A stretch of 56,405 nt of DNA from a virus. Its lineage: Duplodnaviria > Caudoviricetes. Shown piece by piece: positions 7,005-16,983 of the stretch (position 1 is its first letter; each line of letters opens with the position of its first letter). A program made the translations under genes and the position numbers. The notes under the pieces are model-generated. The model was not told where the DNA came from and made no database searches. It saw nothing but the letters and a program-made list of their open reading frames with translations. The stretch spans positions 1-56,405 of the IMG/VR virus record IMGVR_UViG_3300037714_000226. One strand, 5' to 3'.

Positions 7005-10000
7005 TCAGGCGGCGTATCGCATCGCCTGTTTGACCTCGGTAAGGAGGCCCTCCAGTCGCTCCATCCGTCGAAGCACCTTCGGTTGGTCTTCCAAGAGTCG
7101 TGCGAGTTTCTTCTCGACCTTCTCGACAGAGTCCATTTTCTGACTGAACTCTCGCTCCCAACTCTGATGGTTTTGACGCATCACCCGCTCGAAATTGTGG
7201 TTGAAGAGTTGATCGCGTCGCCGGAGTTCGGCGTGATCGAACTGAGTCAGTTGGGATTTCCCCTGGATCGGATCATGCGATGGTGACTGCTGAGCGCCGG
7301 CATCGGGTTCTTCTGCCGGAACGGCCGAGTTGATGATCTTCTGGACCTTCGCCTCTAGATTGGCCTTGTCGACCTGCTCCTTCTCACGGCCCTTCATCAA
7401 CACGGCAGCTTCTTCGTCGGTGAACTTGAAAAGGCTCGTGAGGACGTACTTGGTCGTCACTCGCTCACCCATCCGATCGGCGAGGTCAGCGGTTGCGCTC
7501 ATGACCTCCAACTTCGCCAACTCCATGATCGATGACGGCACGGTCATGTTCACTCGAAAATCGTGGGCGTCCGGGTTACTGGACCCTGCGGCGATAAGAT
7601 GGATGCGGCAAAGCTTACGGTATCCCACGCACAACTCTTGCTGAATGCGCATCACGGTACGGGCAAAACGAGTGTCCTCGCTCGATAACGCGCCGCGTGT
7701 CGCTTCTCCGCCGTACCCCATGTACATCTTAGGGATCTTCAGCGCCGCGACGAGTTTGTCGCGGTGGTATTCGAGCGAGTCAGTCTCAGCGTAGTCAGGG
7801 CCCTGAAGCACCTCGATGCGTGTCGAGTCTTTGCCGTTACGAGACGGCACGAAAAAATCTTCGTCATGGCTGTTGCAGACGAAGACCCCCGCCTCTAGCG
7901 CGAAGGTGTGACACGGTGACACCGTCAGAGTGTAGGTGTCCTCAGATTCGTCGAGCCACTCAACAGCCACCACTTTGTGGTTGTCCGCGATGGCAGACCG
8001 CTTGAAGTCGGAGAAGGAAGTGAAGCCCTCAGGCTTGAGCTGCCCCTTCACGCTCAGAGACAAGTCCTTGGCCACCAACCGATGTCCGTACTCGGACTCC
8101 CTGCGTTTGGGGCAGTAGATCAACTCGTACCCCTCCAGAGCCTCCCCCTTGGCCTTGGTGCTGATCCGTCGCCGGAAGGGCATCAACGAGTCGCCCGGCA
8201 CCAAGTCCTGGGCCTGCACCTTCTCGCCGCTGCGGCGAATCATCTTGTGGTCAGGGGTGACACGGATGCTCTTGCCGTTGTCGAGCGTGATCTTCACGAG
8301 TTGTGCATCGCGCCGGGTGACGCCTGCCCACTCGACCTTGGCAGGCCGGACTCGGCCTTCGTCGTCGAGATCCGAGGCCCACACCCACTGCTCCTCGCCC
8401 CGATCGAATGCACCGGCCATGTCCTCGATGGCCCAAACGGATCCATCAAGGAGTCGTACCTCGGTGTCCCCAGCGAGGCACAGCGGATTGTACCGCATGT
8501 CGAGTTTGCCGGTACTCGGGTTGACGAACCGCTTCTTCACGAATTGGTTTTTGACCCGGTTTACGTAGGCGAGACCACGGTCTCCGTCCATCTCGCCAAT
8601 GTCGATGTAGAAAGCGTAGCGGCTCGGCGCCCGGCTGAGTTTGTAGATCAGAAGAGCGTCTTCCAGCAGGGCCAAACGCTTCCAAATCCACCTAGCCGGA
8701 TCAATGATCCCGTGACCGTAGACCGACCTCAGATGTTTTCCGCGCAGTCTCCAGTGAACTATTTCCCAATCCTCAAAGACTGTCAGTTCACCCGGTCCAC
8801 GAGATCGCTCTGATTGAGTACCGCGCTGCTGTGCGAGTTTGTAGAAGTCCTCCAGCGAGATATTGAACTCGCCCTTGGTGTCCTGGACAAATCCGAGCAA
8901 CTCGCCTCTTGGACCTTCAACACGACGAATAGTCGGAGGTGGAAGGTATTTGACTCCAATAACACCCCGATCGCTGGCAAGCGCTTCTCCGAAGCTATTG
9001 TGAACCACCACTCCTTCAGCCACGAAGTTGTGAGCATCGTCGTCCACTTCGATGTCGTAGACATCAGCCTCGCCAGACGCTTCGACACTCAGCAGGTTCT
9101 CAGACATGAAGCCCGAATCCATCTCATGGTACGAGAACGTGAGAGTCGCAGTCTCGGTGGTACTCTTCACCTTCTTTCCGGCAATCTCCTTGGCCTCACG
9201 GTGACGTGTCCGAAGCTGACCCGACCTGTACCCCAGACCGTCGATCAGGTTCTTCAGATCGCGGGCAAGTTCCACGTTGGCGATCTCGAAGTGGTAGGCC
9301 CTACGGTTCCATGTTGGCTGAGATGTGGTCCACCCATCCGCATCCATAAACCCTTCGAGAAATGCTTGACGATGCTCCATCGACAACATCCCCAACCATG
9401 GCGGAAGCCGCTTCTTCGTGGCCCCGTTCCGAAACCCCATCGACAACAGGAAGCACTTGAACAGGACCGAGTGGACTCTCGTGCAGCACCCGTCGTCTGA
9501 CACAAACGGATTCAAGTCCAGTCGCCTGAGTAAGCCGTCGTAGTAATCGTTCTGATCCTCATTGATCCCACGGGCGTAGGACACCGTACTGTTGCCCGTG
9601 TTAGTCTTTTCCGTAGCCAGATACCCGTCACCCCACCAGAACCCAAGGAGTCGCGTAAGCCACGGCTGAGGATCGCTGGGAAGTGTGAAGTCGTTGACTA
9701 CGTTTCCGCCAACCGACCGCTCCTTCGGGGTCACCACCTTGACGAACAACTCATCCCACGACGGGTTCCTGTCTACCTCGGGCGCACGGGTCGCGATCAT
9801 GAGTTTAGGTGTCTTCGATTTGTCGATGCCCCCAGATGGGTACCGAAAGACCTCCAACTCGGACACCTTGCGCCACTCAGTGCGTCCGCCACCTAGATCC
9901 ACCAGGATGGGGTGGTTGGCTGTTGCCAGGATCTCTCGATGCTTAGTACGCACCCTGAAGATGCTCTTGACCCCGTTCTCGTAACGCTTGACGACGGTAA

Positions 10001-11351
10001 ACAGGACCGCTTTCCCATCTTTGTAACCGAGCACCCTGGTCCCAGGCTCGATCGTCTCGATGGCTCGCTGCCCATGTTCTGTCCACACGCGGGTGCCTGC
10101 TGGAAGACAGTTCCCGTATTTGCATAGCGTTCGCGCCAAACCCCAGTTGTCGTTCTCCACCAGCATGTTGCGATGGAGCATGTCGTTCAACGATTTGGCG
10201 GTGGTGTTGTCGTCTGAGGTCACCCATACAGACTGACCGTCGCCGTCGAGTCTGGGCATCGTTGAGTCGTCTGCGTAGATGTCCAGAGCTGTGTTGTGAA
10301 CCACGACTCCGTGCGCGACGAAGTTGTGGAACCCTGGGACGTTCAGGTCGTAGATCGCCGGACGCTCGTCGAGACGCTCCACCCTGAGCACACGGTGGTT
10401 GCCACCATCGACGATGGGGTCGTTGCCTCGCATCTTCTCGGCCTGCTCGGAACGTCTCTCGTCGGTCCACTCCGGGAAGAAGCGACTGTTGTCGAGACCC
10501 GCGATGTGATGCCCCGCGTGCGACGACGGGGTCTCGATCGACAGGTTCGAGGGTGCGTTGTTGAGGTGGTTGTGATCCTCGTGATGTACGACGTGGCCAG
10601 CACCAGGCTCCACCCCGAGCAATACCTCGGCCACCACCCGATGGAGCCAGACCCATCGCTTCCCATCGCTCGATCGGATACTGGAGTCCGCATGAGGCTG
10701 ATGGACCTGCCAGTACGGCGCTGCATCGGCAGCGTTCAGGCTTCGGAGTCTGACGTTCCCAGGCATGAGCCGTTGCCACATGGGAAGGTCTCCGGCCTGG
10801 ATCCACTCCTCGTCCTTCGTTAGGAATGGGTGGTCTGCCGTGCAGATGATCTGTTCCCCGTTGTCGAGGGTCACCCGCACCATCGACTTGGCGTGCCCCT
10901 CCTCACCGGAGAGAAGAGCCGTTCCCGGTGCGGGCACCAGGGACCGACAGGACTTGTCGTAGGCCAGGACGTGGAACTCCTGCCCCACCAGGTCCCGGAT
11001 GGGCACCCACCCACGCTCCAACGTGAATACCGGAGCATCGCCGTGAAGGCACGAAAGCTCTGGGTATTCGTCCATCTCCTCGTAGTCTGTGTATCGAGCC
11101 TGAAGATCCTGATCGATACGCAGGTGCTGGGCGAGGCTGTCGTAGCCAAACTGACTGGCGAGGTTGTAGGAGAGACCAGCTCGCTCGGAGCTTGGCATCC
11201 CACCTCGGCTGATCTGAGCCGATTGGATCTCTGGTGCCGCTGCGAAGAAGCCACGGATCTGGTTGCCGACCCCCTGGGTGAACCCCTCGACGATCTCTCG
11301 GAAGCTTCTCGCCACGTCCTCGTTATCCCTTGATGAACGGAACCGGACCAT
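7005..11351 (-). CDS. Portal protein, T4 gp20-like, with three inteins (about 621 aa spliced)
   Basis: YEEMDEYPELS|TALDIYADD, LCKYGN|SF, LEDALLIYKLSRAPSRYAFYIDIG, EDFFVPSRNG..STRIEVLQG, ALKIPKMY, EDTRFARTVMRIQ. Confidence 0.95.
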   Translation of the reverse strand: MVRFRSSRDNEDVARSFREIVEGFTQGVGNQIRGFFAAAPEIQSAQISRGGMPSSERAGLSYNLASQFGYDSLAQHLRIDQDLQARYTDYEEMDEYPELSCLHGDAPVFTLERGWVPIRDLVGQEFHVLAYDKSCRSLVPAPGTALLSGEEGHAKSMVRVTLDNGEQIICTADHPFLTKDEEWIQAGDLPMWQRLMPGNVRLRSLNAADAAPYWQVHQPHADSSIRSSDGKRWVWLHRVVAEVLLGVEPGAGHVVHHEDHNHLNNAPSNLSIETPSSHAGHHIAGLDNSRFFPEWTDERRSEQAEKMRGNDPIVDGGNHRVLRVERLDERPAIYDLNVPGFHNFVAHGVVVHNTALDIYADDSTMPRLDGDGQSVWVTSDDNTTAKSLNDMLHRNMLVENDNWGLARTLCKYGNCLPAGTRVWTEHGQRAIETIEPGTRVLGYKDGKAVLFTVVKRYENGVKSIFRVRTKHREILATANHPILVDLGGGRTEWRKVSELEVFRYPSGGIDKSKTPKLMIATRAPEVDRNPSWDELFVKVVTPKERSVGGNVVNDFTLPSDPQPWLTRLLGFWWGDGYLATEKTNTGNSTVSYARGINEDQNDYYDGLLRRLDLNPFVSDDGCCTRVHSVLFKCFLLSMGFRNGATKKRLPPWLGMLSMEHRQAFLEGFMDADGWTTSQPTWNRRAYHFEIANVELARDLKNLIDGLGYRSGQLRTRHREAKEIAGKKVKSTTETATLTFSYHEMDSGFMSENLLSVEASGEADVYDIEVDDDAHNFVAEGVVVHNSFGEALASDRGVIGVKYLPPPTIRRVEGPRGELLGFVQDTKGEFNISLEDFYKLAQQRGTQSERSRGPGELTVFEDWEIVHWRLRGKHLRSVYGHGIIDPARWIWKRLALLEDALLIYKLSRAPSRYAFYIDIGEMDGDRGLAYVNRVKNQFVKKRFVNPSTGKLDMRYNPLCLAGDTEVRLLDGSVWAIEDMAGAFDRGEEQWVWASDLDDEGRVRPAKVEWAGVTRRDAQLVKITLDNGKSIRVTPDHKMIRRSGEKVQAQDLVPGDSLMPFRRRISTKAKGEALEGYELIYCPKRRESEYGHRLVAKDLSLSVKGQLKPEGFTSFSDFKRSAIADNHKVVAVEWLDESEDTYTLTVSPCHTFALEAGVFVCNSHDEDFFVPSRNGKDSTRIEVLQGPDYAETDSLEYHRDKLVAALKIPKMYMGYGGEATRGALSSEDTRFARTVMRIQQELCVGYRKLCRIHLIAAGSSNPDAHDFRVNMTVPSSIMELAKLEVMSATADLADRMGERVTTKYVLTSLFKFTDEEAAVLMKGREKEQVDKANLEAKVQKIINSAVPAEEPDAGAQQSPSHDPIQGKSQLTQFDHAELRRRDQLFNHNFERVMRQNHQSWEREFSQKMDSVEKVEKKLARLLEDQPKVLRRMERLEGLLTEVKQAMRYAA
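7872..8480 (-). mobile_element. Portal intein 3 (203 aa, endonuclease largely deleted, ends Cys-Asn)
   Basis: CLAGDTEV...VTPDHK...GVFVCN followed by Ser; YGHRLVA remnant. Confidence 0.9.
8997..10109 (-). mobile_element. Portal intein 2 (371 aa) with LAGLIDADG endonuclease
   Basis: CLPAGTRV...ATANHP...LLGFWWGDG...FLEGFMDADG...GVVVHN followed by Ser. Confidence 0.95.
10293..11051 (-). mobile_element. Portal intein 1 (253 aa) with HNH endonuclease
   Basis: CLHGDAPV...CTADHPF...WLHRVVAE...VVHHEDHNHLNNAPSNL...GVVVHN followed by Thr. Confidence 0.95.
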
Positions 11352-14300
11352 CGCCCGGCTCGAATGTTGGCGTCCCGCCTACAATACCCTGGTGGTCGGC
11401 CTTGGTACCACTCTTCTCTTCCATCATCACCTTTCCACCCGACACCCAAGAGTCATCTGGTTTCTCCTGGCCGTCGCTGACCGATAGTCCTTTGACCGGA
11501 GGCACTGGTCGGCCAAGCATCCTTTTGGTCAACGAAAAGACGGCACCAGCAAGAGCGTCTGCAACGTCCTTTGATCCGATGACCTCGTTGCCGTCGGGAC
11601 CCGTCATCCGGTCAGGGTGGTCGATCTTGACCCGGCCGCCGGATTTCATGATTCGCTGCACTGACCGCAACTCAGCTTCCAACCACGGGTGAGGATGAAG
11701 AACGACACGCCCTTCATAGATGGCGTCCTTGAGTGTGTCGTAGGCGTCAGAAGTCTTGTCAACCGAGACCACCTCGGCCTCGATACCGCGCTTCCTGAGT
11801 TTCTGAAGAGCATCCGCGGAGTTATGGGATACGATTCCGTTGGCCACGTACGACGGATCCCCATCAACTTCCAGATCGAAAACCTCCGCCTCAGACGAGT
11901 GGATGTCCACCACTCTCACAAACTTCCGACGACCCTTCACTACCGAATGACGCTCCAACTCCGCTTGCTTGCGCTGGTAGGAAAAACCAACCGTATCCAG
12001 AAAGTGTCGTCTCGATCCCCTCAAGCCAACAACGTACTGGAACCCATCGGATACATAGTCTCCAGGACGACCTCTCTCCACGGTGGTGAGGCACGACTCG
12101 ATCCCAAAATCCACCCGAAGCATCAGGCGAACTTGATCTGCCAGTTTTCTGTGCTTGGTTGACAAGGAGACTTTTCCGTCGATCCGCCCAACGTTCCCAT
12201 CAGCAGCAAACAAGCCACGCAGGAAAGCGGCACGCACCCTACGGCTACTTCTAAGCACTGGGAGTGGCACGAACGGTTTCACAAGTCCGTTGCAGTTCAT
12301 CCACCGAACTAGCCACCTAGAGCTGACCGACAGAGTCCCCACCACTCCCCCGGTACCTCTGAAATCCGGCGCGACTCCGAAAAGTGACCGGAAGATCTGC
12401 GCTGCATCATCAGCCTCGTCAGCGGTAACCGTCAGCCTGACCCCGTCCATTTGGATCTGCCCATCCCCCCACACCAGGCCCAGCCACTCGGCGAGCGATG
12501 GGTTCATTTGCGTAGGAAACTCCCACGCGTCGATGCTAGACGGCCTCCAACCCCCTCGACGCCACCCAAGTTCGGACTTGTCGCCCACGAGTTCCGCATC
12601 TGGCGAATCCAGATCAGTTGGTCGATCCCAAACCCTAACCACGTCACCGGCACGGATCTCATCTAACCTCCTCCACTCCCACACGGGTTCTCTGGTTCGC
12701 CCCCACTCGTTCTCAACCAACCCGGTCCACCCAACCTGGACCTCAATGCGGTGCCTGTGCGTGCCCTCAAGCACATCCCCGTCCCGGGTGGTCACCCGAA
12801 GCGTTTCTCGGCGCCCGAACGAAAATACCTGCCGAACCTTGCGAGCACCAGACCGAGACTGGACCTCATCCCCGACAACCACTTCCTCAATAGGAATAAT
12901 GCCTCGTCCGGTGTGGATGAGCGTGCCCTTCGCCAAGCACTGGTACTGATCCATGGAGACGTAGCCTATTTGAAAGCCATGTCCCGAGAACTGGTAGAGG
13001 ATTGACCGGACGTCACTGAGCATGATCTCGTCCCCCGGCGGCGGCTTGATCCTCAGCACAAGATCGGATTCGATGACCGGAGCTAACTCGTTGTACTCTA
13101 TGCCGAACGGGTCGCGCCTGATGACCTCCTTCCACCTGGCGATGTGAGCGATGACCAGGCCGGTGCAGTCTGCGGTGAGCGATGAGTCCCAATGCGCATA
13201 ACGGATGGCTCCTGGATGCCGAAGTGGGCGCCACTGCTGTTCCATCACGCCCCCGGGAAGACGCTGTTCGTACGACTCAGCAATGGATCCCCAACGGATG
13301 GCGAGCGGTGTCCCAGCCACCCACGTGTGAGTAGGCCCCGAACCTTCGTCCCCTAGCGGATTGGTGAGAACGTCAGCCCCCATGTCCACCGACTTCGTGA
13401 TCATGTCGATCCGAGTCATGAATCGCGTGATGGCCTCAGTCGCGATGCCAGCGATCTCACGAAGGGCGTTATCGATGTCACGCTCAAAATCGTTGCGCCA
13501 CTCTGTCGGGACCTCGATAACGCGCAGTCCCATCTCCTCCCATCGGATCTTCTCCGCCTCGACATTGGCGTCTCTTTGGAGGATTCGACTCTGTATCTTC
13601 TCGTTGCCAGCTACGACGTAGAACATCTCTCCAGAGTAGTTCCCTGGCTTCACGTCCCACGTGGAGTATTCACGGACGAAGAAACTCTGATCGTCTGTCT
13701 CCTTCGCCTGCTGAATCCGCTTCTCGATAAAGGCGGTCGGTCGCTCTTTTGAAGAGACAGTAAGAAGCACACCGGGAAGGCGACCAACCTGCTGGAAACG
13801 CGACTTGATGCGGCGAACGATGCTCTTGTGGATCTTCTCGCCGAGGTCTTCGACTACAAACTTTCCCGAGTTGTCGATCGTCTTTTGGTCGCCCATGAAC
13901 GAAGTGTTGTGAACCACCACGCCATTAGCGATGAAGTTCCCTGCGGGCACCGACATCACGTCAAATGTCGGACGGCTTCCCGCACTTCGGACTGAGACAA
14001 CCCGGGCCACAGCTTGCGTTCGTCCCAGACCTCGAAGGTCCACCCTTTTTCCTTGCAGAAGTCGCGGCAAGCCTCGAACTTCACCTTGTTCTTTCCGTAA
14101 CCAAAGCTGCGAGGCTTGACCTCCACCAGCACCACGGTGCCATCGGTCTTGCGGACCTCGAAGTCCGGCAGCGTCCAGCGTGCCTTGCCATCCATGGCAT
14201 AGGGAACCCCGTAGGGCTCGTACGAGAAACTCTCGACAGAGGAGTCCTCGTCCAGAAGTCGCATCGCGTGCTTCTCCCACAGCGACCGGTAGCCACACCG

Positions 14301-16983
14301 GCCACCCTTCTTCGTATTGACGTACCCCTTGTACTTGAACGTCGAGTTGGCCCAGCGTCGAACATTGGCCTCGCTTATCTTTTGTTTGGTCTCCTCCGAA
14401 TGCGAAAATTCCCTGGCCCGATTTCGCTCCGCCAGCTTCCTCTTGAACTCCTCTGTGTGACGAAACAATCGCTTCACCTTGCCCATCTTCTTTCGGTAGC
14501 CCGGATCCTTCCACCGGACCCGCATCCTTTCGGATGCTGCTTGGCGGGACTCCTCCGACCAACCCTTCGGCGCCGACTTCTCCAGCTTTAGCCGGTCTCG
14601 CTCCTTCTTGATGTGCCCCTCCAAGCCATCGTCTGTCACATCCGTCACATCTATCCCTGACTTCCGAGCCTTGGTTCTGATGTTGGACAGTCGAATCTTG
14701 CGTTTCGTCTCCTCCGACCTCAGCGGCAGTTTCCCCTTGAGGGCTTTCCTCGAAACAGAGATCTTGGTTTTGGTCTCTTTCGTGTGCTTCCTGCCCAATA
14801 CGAACTACCTCATCTCCTGCCCTGAGCTGGTCCAGCGGCACGTACCCTTGTCCAACCACAAGGAACGGATGCTCCGATGTCGCCGTAACCACGGTGCCGT
14901 CATCAAACTCGACGTCGAACACGTCGGTGTTGGTGGCCTTCCTGATAGTCCCGGTTGAAGCAACCAGATCCCCCGTCTCCTCGTTGAACGACACGATTCC
15001 TCGAACGATCGTTCCGTCGCCACGGAACATCTCATCAACCCTCTTGTACCCGTCGACGGTGAGGACACGAGTGGATCCTACCACACACTCGTCGATGAAC
15101 CCACTGAAAACGTTAAGTCCGATGATAGCGGTTGATCGCGTTGACCCGGCGACCACCCAGATCTGATTTGGGAACTCGATCTCCAGAGAACTAGGCGCGA
15201 ACCGAAGGTGTTTGAAGTTCTCGCGGAAGTAGGGTGAGTGATCGATCTTTCCCTTCAACTCCTGGATAGCCACACGCCTAGCAACCTTCTCGGACGGAGC
15301 GAGCATTGCCACGTAGATAGCCGACCCATCACTCAGTCCATAGGCTCGCTGCGGATGACGTAGGCAGCTCATCTGGTAGAGCACGTAGGCCATCGCGCAC
15401 GTCGCGAAGTAGCTATTGTGAACGATGGGACCACCGTTGATGACCATGTTCCGCGTCGACGGCACGCTGATCTCGTACACATCCTGCTCGCCAGTCACGA
15501 CGATGGACTCGACCCGATCCCACACGACGTCGCTCGCCATCCTGACGTACCGGTAGTACCTTCCCCGGTACCCAGTCTTCTCGCACAGGTCCACGAACTT
15601 CTGGGTTCCCATCATGGACCCCTTCATCAGGTTGCCCATGGAGAGCCACTCCTTGTTGGTCCACGGGCCCGTTTCCATCCTGATCTCCTTCAACTCCTCC
15701 ACGCCGATGGGCACCACGTCCCAGTTGGTGTTGGACCGGACCGACATCGCCTGCTCCCGAAGTTCTCGGCACGCCTCCTCCTTGCCAGGAATGATTCCCA
15801 CACGATCCAGGAAGAGGAGTTGGCTAGGTGCGTCAGCGATCTGGAGCCTCCACGCGTCGTGAAACGGACCCCCTCGGACAGCACGCTTCGGCTTGTAGGA
15901 CTTGCGGGCCACGATCCCAAATCGCCTCAGGAGCGCCTGGAGGTCGTCCACAAGGCCCTCTGAAGACAACCCGATCTCGATTTTCCTGGGAGACCCCAGG
16001 TAGACGCTGCCATCTGTGAACACCCATCTCAGGAACATGGCTAGCTGCTTGTCGGGAAGCCCAAAAAACGACGCTGGTACACGCTTCTCCGTCGAGTTGC
16101 AGTCCAACGCGAGGGAACGAACGAACGGAAGCATTCCCCTGAGGTAGACGTGATGAGCCCCTTTCTTGAACACATCTCGCCCGACCCCACCCCAGCCACT
16201 GATACGAGATGCCGACTCGATTACCTGGTCTACCAGGCGTCGATCGCCTTTCACGTACTCACACGAGCCATGCCCTAGCTTGGACCCGTCCGCGACAAGA
16301 GCAGCAGCAACCAGTACCTCGTCGTCAGTCCTTGGGTCCCCATGGTCGGGCGCCGGCACTCTCCTGGCCACCGCAACCATGTCCCCAGGATTCATCTCCC
16401 CGAGAACCCTGTAGCCACCAGGCACCCGAACCCTGTGATCCAGGGACACCTCGAACCACTGCCCCGAGGCCAGAGTAGCCTTGGCACACACCTTTCGACC
16501 GCTCTTCCATACCCGGTTGACCCGCTCCGATCCGACGAGCCCATCGTCGGTCATCGACGCAATCGAAGAGCAGCACTCTTCCTTGACACTCCTCCTGTTT
16601 CCTGTACCCTGGTCTACGTAAATAGTTGATATTGCTAGACATTTCCCCCAACCGATTGACCCACCGAGCGCTCCCTCGTGGTAGTCGCCATCGAACAACT
16701 CGACGAGGTCTTGCTTCAGCTTCGGATACAGGGTCCGGCCGATGTGACCGATGTAGTAGTCGTCATCCAGAAAGCGCTCAACAGACACCGGCCGTATCCG
16801 GTAGTCGATGGACGTCAGCTTGCTGAAATACTCAGGGAGGTTTCCGCCGATCTTCTCTAGGGTCTCGATGACCGCGGTCTGCTCTCTGAGGGTCATTCCC
16901 TCCAACTCAGCAGAGAGTCGCTCTTTTTCGTCTTCAAGATCCCGAACGGAGCGCGGCCGTCCTTTGTCGGAGATGATACTCAC
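11323..16983 (-). CDS. terL: Large terminase subunit with three inteins (about 710 aa spliced)
   Basis: Walker A GSIGWGK|S, Walker B GFIDE|T, nuclease motifs HWDSS..DCTG, SMDQYQ|S, KIDHP...SKDVADALAG; directly upstream of portal. Confidence 0.95.
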   Translation of the reverse strand: MSIISDKGRPRSVRDLEDEKERLSAELEGMTLREQTAVIETLEKIGGNLPEYFSKLTSIDYRIRPVSVERFLDDDYYIGHIGRTLYPKLKQDLVELFDGDYHEGALGGSIGWGKCLAISTIYVDQGTGNRRSVKEECCSSIASMTDDGLVGSERVNRVWKSGRKVCAKATLASGQWFEVSLDHRVRVPGGYRVLGEMNPGDMVAVARRVPAPDHGDPRTDDEVLVAAALVADGSKLGHGSCEYVKGDRRLVDQVIESASRISGWGGVGRDVFKKGAHHVYLRGMLPFVRSLALDCNSTEKRVPASFFGLPDKQLAMFLRWVFTDGSVYLGSPRKIEIGLSSEGLVDDLQALLRRFGIVARKSYKPKRAVRGGPFHDAWRLQIADAPSQLLFLDRVGIIPGKEEACRELREQAMSVRSNTNWDVVPIGVEELKEIRMETGPWTNKEWLSMGNLMKGSMMGTQKFVDLCEKTGYRGRYYRYVRMASDVVWDRVESIVVTGEQDVYEISVPSTRNMVINGGPIVHNSYFATCAMAYVLYQMSCLRHPQRAYGLSDGSAIYVAMLAPSEKVARRVAIQELKGKIDHSPYFRENFKHLRFAPSSLEIEFPNQIWVVAGSTRSTAIIGLNVFSGFIDECVVGSTRVLTVDGYKRVDEMFRGDGTIVRGIVSFNEETGDLVASTGTIRKATNTDVFDVEFDDGTVVTATSEHPFLVVGQGYVPLDQLRAGDEVVRIGQEAHERDQNQDLCFEESPQGETAAEVGGDETQDSTVQHQNQGSEVRDRCDGCDRRWLGGAHQEGARPAKAGEVGAEGLVGGVPPSSIRKDAGPVEGSGLPKEDGQGEAIVSSHRGVQEEAGGAKSGQGIFAFGGDQTKDKRGQCSTLGQLDVQVQGVRQYEEGWPVWLPVAVGEARDATSGRGLLCREFLVRALRGSLCHGWQGTLDAAGLRGPQDRWHRGAGGGQASQLWLRKEQGEVRGLPRLLQGKRVDLRGLGRTQAVARVVSVRSAGSRPTFDVMSVPAGNFIANGVVVHNTSFMGDQKTIDNSGKFVVEDLGEKIHKSIVRRIKSRFQQVGRLPGVLLTVSSKERPTAFIEKRIQQAKETDDQSFFVREYSTWDVKPGNYSGEMFYVVAGNEKIQSRILQRDANVEAEKIRWEEMGLRVIEVPTEWRNDFERDIDNALREIAGIATEAITRFMTRIDMITKSVDMGADVLTNPLGDEGSGPTHTWVAGTPLAIRWGSIAESYEQRLPGGVMEQQWRPLRHPGAIRYAHWDSSLTADCTGLVIAHIARWKEVIRRDPFGIEYNELAPVIESDLVLRIKPPPGDEIMLSDVRSILYQFSGHGFQIGYVSMDQYQCLAKGTLIHTGRGIIPIEEVVVGDEVQSRSGARKVRQVFSFGRRETLRVTTRDGDVLEGTHRHRIEVQVGWTGLVENEWGRTREPVWEWRRLDEIRAGDVVRVWDRPTDLDSPDAELVGDKSELGWRRGGWRPSSIDAWEFPTQMNPSLAEWLGLVWGDGQIQMDGVRLTVTADEADDAAQIFRSLFGVAPDFRGTGGVVGTLSVSSRWLVRWMNCNGLVKPFVPLPVLRSSRRVRAAFLRGLFAADGNVGRIDGKVSLSTKHRKLADQVRLMLRVDFGIESCLTTVERGRPGDYVSDGFQYVVGLRGSRRHFLDTVGFSYQRKQAELERHSVVKGRRKFVRVVDIHSSEAEVFDLEVDGDPSYVANGIVSHNSADALQKLRKRGIEAEVVSVDKTSDAYDTLKDAIYEGRVVLHPHPWLEAELRSVQRIMKSGGRVKIDHPDRMTGPDGNEVIGSKDVADALAGAVFSLTKRMLGRPVPPVKGLSVSDGQEKPDDSWVSGGKVMMEEKSGTKADHQGIVGGTPTFEPGDGPVPFIKG
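11821..12939 (-). mobile_element. Terminase intein 3 (373 aa) with LAGLIDADG endonuclease
   Basis: CLAKGTLI...GTHRHR...WLGLVWGDG...FLRGLFAADG...GIVSHN followed by Ser. Confidence 0.95.
13906..15087 (-). mobile_element. Terminase intein 2 (394 aa) at Walker B, carrying an out-of-frame endonuclease gene
   Basis: CVVGSTRV...ATSEHPF...GDEV, then about 265 aa of G/E/Q/R-rich non-domain sequence, then TFDVMSV...GVVVHN followed by Thr. Confidence 0.93.
13956..14798 (-). CDS. Nested endonuclease: NUMOD3-like repeats plus TnsA-N-like PD-(D/E)XK domain, +1 frame inside terminase intein 2
   Basis: TTG start with SD GAGGT 8 nt upstream; repeats HTKETKTKIS, RSEETKRKIR, HTEEFKRKLA, HSEETKQKIS; YRSLWE...YEP...PDF...VEVKP...GWTFEVWDE. 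Confidence 0.9.
   Translation of the reverse strand: MGRKHTKETKTKISVSRKALKGKLPLRSEETKRKIRLSNIRTKARKSGIDVTDVTDDGLEGHIKKERDRLKLEKSAPKGWSEESRQAASERMRVRWKDPGYRKKMGKVKRLFRHTEEFKRKLAERNRAREFSHSEETKQKISEANVRRWANSTFKYKGYVNTKKGGRCGYRSLWEKHAMRLLDEDSSVESFSYEPYGVPYAMDGKARWTLPDFEVRKTDGTVVLVEVKPRSFGYGKNKVKFEACRDFCKEKGWTFEVWDERKLWPGLSQSEVREAVRHLT
15415..16641 (-). mobile_element. Terminase intein 1 (409 aa) at Walker A with LAGLIDADG endonuclease
   Basis: CLAISTIY...VSLDHR...AAALVADG...FLRWVFTDG...PIVHN followed by Ser. Confidence 0.93.

Follow-up and report, generated by a model that had tools for sequence, protein, structure and literature searches.

Inteins with out-of-frame or antisense homing endonucleases have been described in actinobacteriophages (Gosselin, Arsenault, Gogarten, bioRxiv 10.1101/2025.01.02.630785); according to the accessible part of that preprint the in-frame reading of the endonuclease region yields no recognisable structure, and its authors propose that a free-standing endonuclease invaded an intein. 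The locus described here lies in the window, by which is meant the whole stretch of 56,405 nucleotides that was analysed. As far as the same part of the preprint goes, it shares with those inteins an endonuclease ORF placed between the splicing blocks in a different frame, an intein and extein frame that stays open, and its position in a terminase large subunit gene, where many of the published cases are found. It differs from them in its nuclease, since the same-strand case in the accessible text is endonuclease VII-like and in frame 3 whereas that of the window combines NUMOD3 repeats with a TnsA-like domain in the +1 frame (their frame 2), and in its hosts, which are actinophages in the preprint and uncultured non-actinophage viruses for the family of the window. 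The terms “TnsA”, “NUMOD” and “Walker” have 0 occurrences in the main text of the preprint, and targeted literature searches turned up no intein with an endonuclease of TnsA-like or NUMOD3 type, the papers that matched on TnsA being reviews of gene editing or CRISPR to judge by title and abstract. It is clear that the architecture itself was already known, from preprints of 2025-2026 on out-of-frame intein endonucleases; what is new is the nuclease family, the depth of its conservation and the measured avoidance of stop codons. The combination of NUMOD3 with a TnsA/gp4-like PD-(D/E)XK domain represents a fourth nuclease type for inteins whose endonuclease lies in another frame.

The dnaX intein resembles that of the window in its overlapping-frame endonuclease, in a distribution that is sporadic relative to the extein tree and in the secondary invasion of a mini-intein that has been proposed for it, but its host gene is cellular and its endonuclease, as given in the accessible text of Gosselin et al., is a LAGLIDADG protein on the antisense strand. 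In “fractured genes”, described in the available part of Dassa et al. 2009 (PMC2677866) as split inteins whose halves flank a free-standing endonuclease gene, an autonomous endonuclease gene also occupies the endonuclease-insertion point of the intein; there, however, the host ORF is in pieces whose products are joined in trans, whereas the terminase frame of the window is unbroken. Classification of the window as a fractured gene or split intein was rejected, as there are 0 terminase-frame stops across the intein; because that frame has no stop, the intein is contiguous. One example of a fractured gene was encountered among the other loci (L082), a split DnaE with a Vsr/DUF559-like gene. The ShiLan “hidden HNH” in phage methylases (Arsenault et al. 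2025, PMC11855218) is likewise an out-of-frame endonuclease within an open host ORF, but the accessible portion of that paper gives it no detectable splicing domains and no RBS, whereas the window has intact intein blocks and a Shine-Dalgarno-like motif.

The terminase intein and its nested ORF

The terminase large subunit ORF of the window (Table 1) contains three Intein_splicing stretches and two LAGLIDADG_3 stretches (Pfam). Its C-extein is 30-34% identical to annotated phage terminases and the portal protein of the window is T4-like; the source is a single metagenome-derived viral record, about 29% complete. The first codon of the second intein is TGT (Cys, 15087-15085) and its last two are CAC AAC (His-Asn, 13911-13906), after which comes Thr. 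The sequence-only reading had ascribed normal splicing blocks to both of its ends, and the residues and the Pfam match both agree. The class 1 hallmarks C1, block B T70-S-E-H73, H393-N394 and Thr+1 are present, with C1, H73, H393 and N394 invariant in 5 of 5 sequences, and Intein_splicing (PF14890) matches the intein frame at 2.2e-9 (37.7 bits against a cut-off of 35.8), a small margin that reflects the 265 unrelated residues in its middle. In the N-terminal splicing region C1, G13, G39, H73, P74, G91, E93 and V94 are invariant (5/5), and in the C-terminal region V360, A361, R362, V363, V364, R367, G370, T374, D376 ... V392, H393 and N394. The first ~19 codons of the C-terminal region (to 13956) are doubly constrained because they are shared with the conserved tail of the nuclease, LWPGLSQSEVRxAVxRLT, which is kept in the window and 12 homologs.

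Table 1. Features of the terminase gene, its second intein and the nested nuclease gene (positions in the window)
Feature	Positions	Strand	Basis
Terminase large subunit ORF, 1886 aa, three inteins	11323-16983	-	ORF list, profiles, extein comparison
Intein 2, 394 aa, directly 3' of the Walker B Asp-Glu codons	13906-15087	-	Sequence, Pfam, residue alignment
N-terminal splicing region, intein residues 1-95, terminase frame only	14803-15087	-	Invariant residues, strand prediction
Shine-Dalgarno-like GAGGT, from intein D-E-V codons	14807-14811	-	Sequence
Putative “passenger” linker in the terminase frame, intein residues ~96-359	14011-14802	-	Identity, GC by position, structure prediction
Nested nuclease gene, 280 aa, TTG start, TGA stop, +1 frame	13956-14798	-	ORF, Pfam, fold, conservation
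C-terminal splicing region, blocks F and G, residues 360-394	13906-14010	-	Invariant residues

The insertion is precise and in frame: 76 relatives read ...(F/L)(I/L)DE and then (S/T)(S/N)F(M/L)... unbroken across the site. In one locus (L101) the site reads SAIIGLNVFSGFIDE followed directly by TSFMG, identical to the ligated junction predicted for the window, and the ...GFIDE/TSFMG... of intein-less relatives confirms the boundaries of intein 2. The AlphaFold2 model of the intein frame, made from a 5-sequence alignment, is poor throughout (mean pLDDT 33.3), with beta strands at intein residues 7-70 at low confidence; it therefore can neither confirm a HINT fold nor serve as proof of disorder in the linker. 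By its residues, profile match and in-frame insertion intein 2 classifies as a class 1 intein, and its splicing is predicted.

Codons 97-378 of the intein overlap the 280-residue ORF of the +1 frame, for which the sequence-only reading had proposed NUMOD3-like repeats and a TnsA-like domain; both Pfam matches are indeed above their cut-offs. NUMOD3 (PF07460) matches at 3.1e-9 (37.1 bits, cut-off 20.4), with its best stretch at residues 132-145, and Tn7_TnsA-like_N (PF08722) at 7.4e-9 (36.5 bits, cut-off 26.5). About five NUMOD3-like helical repeats occupy residues 1-150, the four beyond the best stretch being judged by eye and carrying no individual scores. The TnsA-like PD-(D/E)XK nuclease domain spans residues ~155-262 and contains P211-D212 and E226-x-K228, which are invariant in 17 of 17 sequences and are equated with the TnsA catalytic residues by motif rather than by residue-level superposition. 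In the AlphaFold2 model of the nuclease (mean pLDDT 84.3) the best PDB match is TnsA 1t0f (E 5.7e-5, rmsd 3.1, 126 columns), and the three best Foldseek matches are TnsA chains; the predicted fold is confidently TnsA-like. The nuclease is a candidate site-specific enzyme for the conserved Walker B coding sequence.

The putative translation signals of this ORF lie within the coding sequence of the intein, where they had been placed by the sequence-only reading. The GAGGT at 14811-14807 stands 8 nt before a TTG at 14798-14796, a weak start codon, and the TGA at 13958-13956 falls within the block F codons GTG ATG.

Stop avoidance and conservation in the two frames

Six further distinct viral contigs (L001, L002, L003, L005, L046 and L149) carry an insert at the same site with the same +1 offset. 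Across all seven loci a same-strand +1 endonuclease ORF lies between blocks B and F, the terminase frame is unbroken, and GAGG or GGAGG precedes a candidate start codon by 4-10 nt (7/7 in each case). Relatives in viral contigs were found by an alignment-based scan; a single-protein search of the same contigs with the nuclease gave nothing, and a DNA search of phage records with the intein region gave no match. A metagenome scan keyed on the generic NUMOD3 motif returned distant proteins only (at most ~30% identity over the nuclease domain), a narrower alignment (A4) found no relative among species-representative genomes, and no longer fused proteins scored, in a search that is weak evidence on this point.

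The openness of both frames, noted over 840 nt in the sequence-only reading, holds over 843 nt. Over the nuclease ORF, stops number 9 in the +2 frame and 7, 7 and 2 in the three antisense frames. A stop arises in the terminase frame where an HEG codon beginning AA, AG or GA follows a codon ending in T. Such risky contexts number 0 of 96 in the window nuclease, although a codon ending in T is the preceding one at 32 of 184 of its remaining positions; the background is 359 of 3658 (9.8%) over 24 further long ORFs of the window, each of which has more than 0. When synonymous codons of the window nuclease were shuffled, the terminase frame was open in 0 of 20,000 shuffles, with a mean of 10.0 stops; the open shuffles per 20,000 for the six relatives, in the order given above, were 34, 0, 0, 3, 2 and 0. 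Avoidance of stops extends to the homologs: pooled over the seven loci there are 0 risky contexts in 606, and the terminase frame of a locus has 0 stops where 5-12 are expected. The double openness is far beyond chance, and selection keeps both frames open. Selection on both frames is here quantified for the first time for such inteins, as far as the accessible literature shows. Further, as the 0 of 606 stop-prone contexts come from seven diverged lineages, such a layout can last and is not necessarily a short-lived prelude to decay.

The two frames are nevertheless not conserved alike. In the nuclease frame amino-acid identity lies at 0.38-0.56, while the terminase frame (0.25-0.37) is no better conserved than the unread one (0.23-0.35); GC by codon position in the linker is displaced one base from the terminase frame, and the GC3 periodicity tracks the nuclease frame in all loci. 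The impression that the middle ~265 residues of the intein are off-frame is borne out by these two measures, identity there being that of the unread frame. In the low-confidence AlphaFold2 model no secondary structure is predicted at residues 77-339. On these comparisons protein-level conservation and normal codon periodicity are seen in the nuclease frame only, and the middle of the terminase frame appears to be a passenger linker. The linker must be translated, and selection acts on its freedom from stops alone. For intein engineering, this means that ~265 unselected residues are apparently tolerated at the endonuclease-insertion loop of an intein in an essential gene; for annotation, long inteins apparently without an endonuclease domain merit a check of the other frames.

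Compensating assembly indels had already been raised by the sequence-only reading, and with two of them, from sequencing or assembly, the endonuclease would be a canonical in-frame one. The window is one metagenome-derived record, and in a database relative (P0025) one predicted protein moves from the terminase frame to the nuclease frame, which implies that indels arise in the nuclease family or its assemblies. Such an origin of the offset is nonetheless barely conceivable. The same offset is shared by seven distinct contigs assembled independently from different samples, and an artefact would leave openness to chance, yet no stop interrupts the terminase frame at any of them. Moreover, in each of the five loci examined for it (window, L001, L002, L003 and L005) a nuclease-frame stop precedes the start by 1-9 codons, and the 3' end is conserved in both frames over the same codons, so there is no room for an indel.

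A second alternative holds that the nested ORF arose by chance or is in decay and is no longer expressed, the element being a mini-intein with a long junk loop. The TTG start would suit this, as would the internal start itself, where a promoter scan gave 0 sigma-70-like sites and the RNA fold was unremarkable (z-score 0.54). Decay of the endonuclease once fixed is also what the homing-cycle model expects, and the accessible text of Gosselin et al. (10.1101/2025.01.02.630785) foresees it as quick, whereas the layout of the window persists and all 7 loci retain an unbroken nuclease ORF across 30-56% amino-acid divergence. With the catalytic residues also invariant, codon periodicity and conservation confined to the nuclease frame, and a confident fold prediction, an unexpressed remnant is very unlikely.

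In principle, programmed +1 ribosomal frameshifting could also yield the nuclease, fused to the N-terminal half of the intein and with no internal initiation. In P0032 and P0170 the N-extein, the N-terminal intein half and the nuclease are all in one frame, which suggests that a fusion is viable somewhere. Against this, a nuclease-frame TAG stands two codons before the TTG in the window and a TGA one codon before the start in L001; because these stops are so close to the start there is almost no space for a frameshift. Since a Shine-Dalgarno-like motif and a start codon are also present in every locus, this route is extremely improbable.

Stop avoidance, frame-specific conservation, the shifted periodicity and the layout in six other contigs are the reasons for reading the nuclease as a nested gene, and they support the original suggestion that it is a separate, overlapping +1 gene.

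Distribution, probable homing and possible origin of the element

The Walker B site is uninterrupted in 76 of 79 scorable related terminases, and the closest terminase relatives of the window (59-62% identity) are without the insert. A single-protein search found no close extein relatives; these were found with an alignment (A3). On the extein tree, a quick tree of 191 columns in which many forks lack support, the seven carriers require 7 changes, at least 4 of them forced by well-supported branches, and the carriers are not clustered relative to shuffles. One filled and empty pair is available, L005 and the intein-less L122 and L123, with flanks 82-87% identical in nucleotides. Between the window and L001 the extein identity is 0.35 and that of the nuclease 0.53, and such intein and extein identities among the first five loci give only a weak hint of incongruence. 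On sequence comparison the intein 2 element is sporadic and its occurrence appears at odds with the extein phylogeny.

It is highly probable that the element is a mobile class 1 intein lying just after the Walker B Asp-Glu, and that a nested +1 gene, translated on its own, supplies its homing endonuclease. Ribosomes in the terminase frame have to traverse ~265 codons that are an off-frame reading of the nuclease gene. Where inteins usually carry an inserted endonuclease, this stretch would be tolerated as a loop, probably a disordered one; the two parts of the HINT domain (residues 1-95 and 360-394) would splice out this linker to leave ...GFIDE-TSFMG.... Translation of the nuclease would begin inside the same message, at the TTG that follows GAGGT by 8 nt, and would terminate at the TGA within block F. 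The NUMOD3 repeats may then bind DNA, with the TnsA-like PD-(D/E)XK domain cutting terminase alleles that lack the intein, close to their Walker B codons, in co-infection, and repair off the intein-bearing copy would spread the whole unit.

A role other than homing is conceivable because the best PHROG match of the nuclease core is a “head closure” family (phrog_218, 3.3e-19). The nested protein could be a T4 gp4-like head-completion or packaging nuclease, co-expressed from the terminase gene and serving the phage: T4-type gp4 genes are ~32% identical over nuclease residues 155-270 (tblastn), the portal is T4-like, and there is no second phrog_218 match across the 56 kb. However, the insert is absent from almost all related terminases, including the closest, which disfavours the packaging role that the sequence-only reading had offered as an alternative. 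The phrog_218 match has its best stretch at profile positions 20-88 of 148, about half, and phrog_314 “homing endonuclease” matches too; a NUMOD3 array such as this one, of ~150 residues, typifies homing endonucleases, and in a record so incomplete the gp4 gene may be elsewhere. The homology to phrog_218 is genuine, but identification with the T4 gp4 head-completion protein proper, a stand-alone protein of about 150 aa, was rejected on the partial profile, the additional 150-residue NUMOD3 array and the nesting in an intein, and a packaging function in general is unlikely.

For the homing endonuclease, an origin by entry of a free-standing endonuclease into a mini-intein is plausible as the order of events; the nuclease family is very large (10,651 representatives at E<=0.001) and has stand-alone members such as phiXF1_158. 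It is possible, if rather doubtful, that the nested pair is a long-lived symbiosis maintained by selection and that the family preserves the whole route from endonuclease gain to split inteins. The stages would be free-standing NUMOD3/TnsA-like genes (such as phiXF1_158), the nested +1 form (seven loci), fusion to the N-terminal half (P0032, P0169 and P0170) and the frame switch (P0025). Should DNA of the P0025 and P0032 type confirm split or in-frame states, one nuclease lineage would document the models of Dassa and Gogarten from first stage to last. P0032, P0169 and P0170, on three contigs, have a common C-terminus that ends before block F.

A nuclease gene nested in terminase intein 2

The fragment of 56 kb, from an uncultured virus and with an estimated completeness of 29%, carries a terminase gene whose second intein had been described in the sequence-only reading as having normal N- and C-terminal splicing blocks, an off-frame-looking middle and, across that middle, a +1-frame ORF of 280 aa with NUMOD3-like repeats and a TnsA-N-like domain. 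All of these features were found. Both splicing parts are conserved in relatives by alignment and Pfam Intein_splicing matches the intein, barely over threshold; the ~265 residues between them are Gly/Arg/Glu/Ala-rich and match nothing. The nested ORF matches Pfam NUMOD3 and Tn7_TnsA-like_N, both over thresholds.

Features of the terminase region and of the adjacent portal gene
Feature	Position	Strand	Detail
Terminase large subunit ORF	11323-16983	-	1886 aa, three inteins
Intein 2 start	15087-15085	-	Cys codon TGT, immediately after Walker B ...GFIDE
Intein 2 end	to 13906	-	His-Asn, then Thr-Ser-Phe-Met-Gly; intein of 394 residues
Intein 2 blocks A and B	residues 1-95		C1, T70-x-x-H73
Intein 2 blocks F and G	residues 360-394		VARVVS...VVVHN
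Nested nuclease ORF	14798-13956	-	280 aa, frame one base later than that of the terminase
GAGGT	14811-14807	-	formed by Asp-Glu-Val codons, 8 nt upstream of TTG
Nuclease TGA			inside GTG ATG codons of intein block F
Portal ORF	7005-11351	-	Portal_T4 3.4e-44, T4-like

The structure predicted for the nuclease frame (mean pLDDT 84.3) has seven helices followed by a mixed alpha/beta domain; its best PDB matches are three TnsA entries, and P211-D212 and E226-x-K228 are invariant in 17/17 sequences. The intein-frame model, built on a five-deep alignment and with the splicing blocks also scoring poorly, has a mean pLDDT of 33.3, and its residues 77-339 lack predicted secondary structure; this model counts for little. 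At the three codon positions the remaining terminase gene has GC contents of 0.60/0.43/0.72. Those of the overlap, 0.76/0.53/0.43, are the usual codon pattern displaced by one base; the same displacement is seen in all loci examined.

Two of the three inteins in the terminase hold an in-frame LAGLIDADG_3, and the portal has three Intein_splicing stretches with an in-frame HNH_3 and a LAGLIDADG_3; these adjacent essential genes, whose ORFs overlap by 29 nt, together contain six inteins.

Stop avoidance and the layout in other viral contigs

Only a nuclease codon ending in T before a codon starting with AA, AG or GA creates a stop in the terminase frame (a risky context). Since the nuclease is rich in Lys, Glu and Arg, there are 96 positions where a preceding T would have this effect. 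T is found at 0/96 of these, against 32/184 codons elsewhere in the gene, and the context occurs at 359/3658 (9.8%) across 24 long ORFs elsewhere in the window, every one of which has some. Synonymous-codon shuffles within the nuclease gene gave a mean of 10.0 stops and left the frame open in 0/20,000. The same stretch has 9 stops in the third forward frame and 7, 7 and 2 in the antisense frames.

Sixteen database proteins share 29-62% identity with the nuclease (MAFFT alignment), each called as a gene of its own, 194-366 aa long. Twelve end in LWPGLSQSEVRxAVxRLT and three in a LWPASCPR...SLPTT-type tail, an odd conservation that is expected if these codons also encode intein block F in a different frame. 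DNA context came from six more viral contigs, all distinct (L004 and L006 being repeats of L003 and L005), in each of which the terminase has an intein after ...DE|C, the nuclease ORF lies at +1 offset and the terminase frame is without a stop across 855-1053 nt. The +2 frame has 6-16 stops in the six loci counted, L046 being left out of the count.

Risky contexts, open shuffles and candidate starts in the six further carrier loci
Locus	Risky contexts	Shuffles staying open, of 20,000	Candidate start
L001	0/83	34	TTG
L002	0/89	0	TTG
L003	0/96	0	ATG
L005	0/80	3	ATG
L046	0/70	2	ATG
L149	0/92	0	ATG

Pooled with the window, the seven loci have 0/606 risky contexts; stop avoidance among homologs was a check suggested by the sequence-only reading. 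When the first five loci are compared in pairs, the nuclease frame has identities of 0.38-0.56 and the terminase frame 0.25-0.37, the latter not above that of the unread third frame (0.23-0.35). Both frames are conserved at the protein level only within the final ~19 codons of the overlap. The nuclease gene looks ordinary and under selection, with the added constraint on its synonymous sites that the terminase frame stays stop-free. The claim that the endonuclease is a separate, overlapping +1-frame gene is supported by stop avoidance, frame-specific conservation and shared layout. Compensating assembly indels could alternatively have produced such a layout; they are ruled out by its presence in independent assemblies whose nucleases are 30-56% identical.

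L002 (1771-7140) and L149 (102-6080) are other heavily invaded terminases, with at least three or four inteins that include in-frame HNH-type motifs (HH.D.N..NN....NL); intein load is unusually high in the virus group of these two loci and the window.

Probable mobility and putative expression of the unit

A scan with the C-extein matched 345 related terminase loci, of which the best 80 were returned (L116 was not scorable). Among these 80, an uninterrupted ...DE|(S/T)(S/N)F... site was found in 76, including L088-L091, which are closest to the window (59-62% identity), and an intein with an out-of-frame nuclease in three, L149 and L156/L157, the latter being the same contigs as L005/L006; none had an intein at the Walker B site without a nuclease or with one in frame. 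A maximum-likelihood tree was quickly built from the C-extein segment (83 rows, 67 once identical rows were merged; L116, L156, L157, L004 and L006 not included). To place the seven carriers on it takes seven gains or losses, at least four of them forced by well-supported branches, and the carriers cluster no more than shuffled labels. Furthermore, L005 (3397-4557) and the intein-less L122/L123 (about 3460) form a filled-site/empty-site pair: a 1161-bp intein-plus-nuclease unit is cleanly inserted between flanks of 82.5% (N side) and 87.4% (C side) DNA identity that are contiguous in L122/L123. This distribution is that of a mobile element. The homology of the nuclease core to T4-type 'head closure' proteins is genuine, and a gp4-like packaging role had been offered as an alternative; the sporadic, mobile-element distribution argues against such service.

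The SD motif made of intein codons and the TGA within block F are as first read. In 7/7 loci GAGG or GGAGG lies 4-10 nt upstream of a candidate start, which is TTG in the window; in 6/7 the motif is supplied by the conserved (D/E/Q)-E-V codons that close the N-terminal splicing domain. A nuclease-frame stop lies 1-9 codons upstream of this start in each locus checked, namely the window, L001, L002, L003 and L005 (two codons in the window, one in L001), which argues that the presumed translation uses internal initiation rather than frameshifting. A promoter scan found no sigma-70-like promoter at the internal start, and the RNA fold around it is nothing unusual.

Known systems and related forms

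Out-of-frame endonucleases in inteins are already known. Actinophage inteins, many in terminases, are described by Gosselin, Arsenault and Gogarten (bioRxiv 10.1101/2025.01.02.630785) with non-canonical endonuclease layouts, one having an endonuclease VII-like enzyme 'in frame 3', others antisense-strand LAGLIDADG or VSR-like enzymes, and invasion of inteins by free-standing endonucleases is proposed there. A 2026 preprint treats a cyanobacterial dnaX intein likewise, and Arsenault et al. 2025 (PMC11855218) report out-of-frame HNH genes in methylases. The present element is a well-founded variant of a recently described kind and no new category. No paper in which the NUMOD3 + TnsA-like family serves as an intein endonuclease came up in a literature search, and 'TnsA' or 'NUMOD' has 0 occurrences in the main text of the bioRxiv paper; this enzyme type, the keeping of the layout across deep divergence and the measured anti-stop selection appear to be unreported.

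The nuclease family is large (10,651 representatives at E<=0.001) and includes stand-alone genes, e.g. phiXF1_158. Four database relatives may be in-frame, split or damaged forms. P0032, P0169 and P0170, from separate contigs of 3670, 4757 and 4720 bp, have coinciding C-termini, down to the last residue; P0032 and P0170 join terminase N-extein, N-terminal intein half, zinc ribbon, NUMOD3 and TnsA-like nuclease in one reading frame, whereas in P0169 just the nuclease part was called. These three may come from a terminase with a split intein, or mark a transitional, in-frame stage of this nuclease family. P0025 (1045 aa) runs through terminase N-extein, LAGLIDADG intein, Walker B intein N-half and ~60 residues of off-frame linker, then switches to the nuclease frame midway, up to the nuclease stop; this is either a real indel breaking the terminase or an assembly error.

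In L082 (2-2815, 2838-3761, 3761-4975) the gene for DNA polymerase III alpha is 'fractured'. Its N-half runs into an N-terminal intein half and then a stop, the middle gene is a free-standing 307-aa Vsr/DUF559-like endonuclease with zinc fingers, and blocks F and G (...HNFIANGVVVHN|C) stand at the start of the C-half, which is the arrangement described by Dassa et al. 2009 (PMC2677866).
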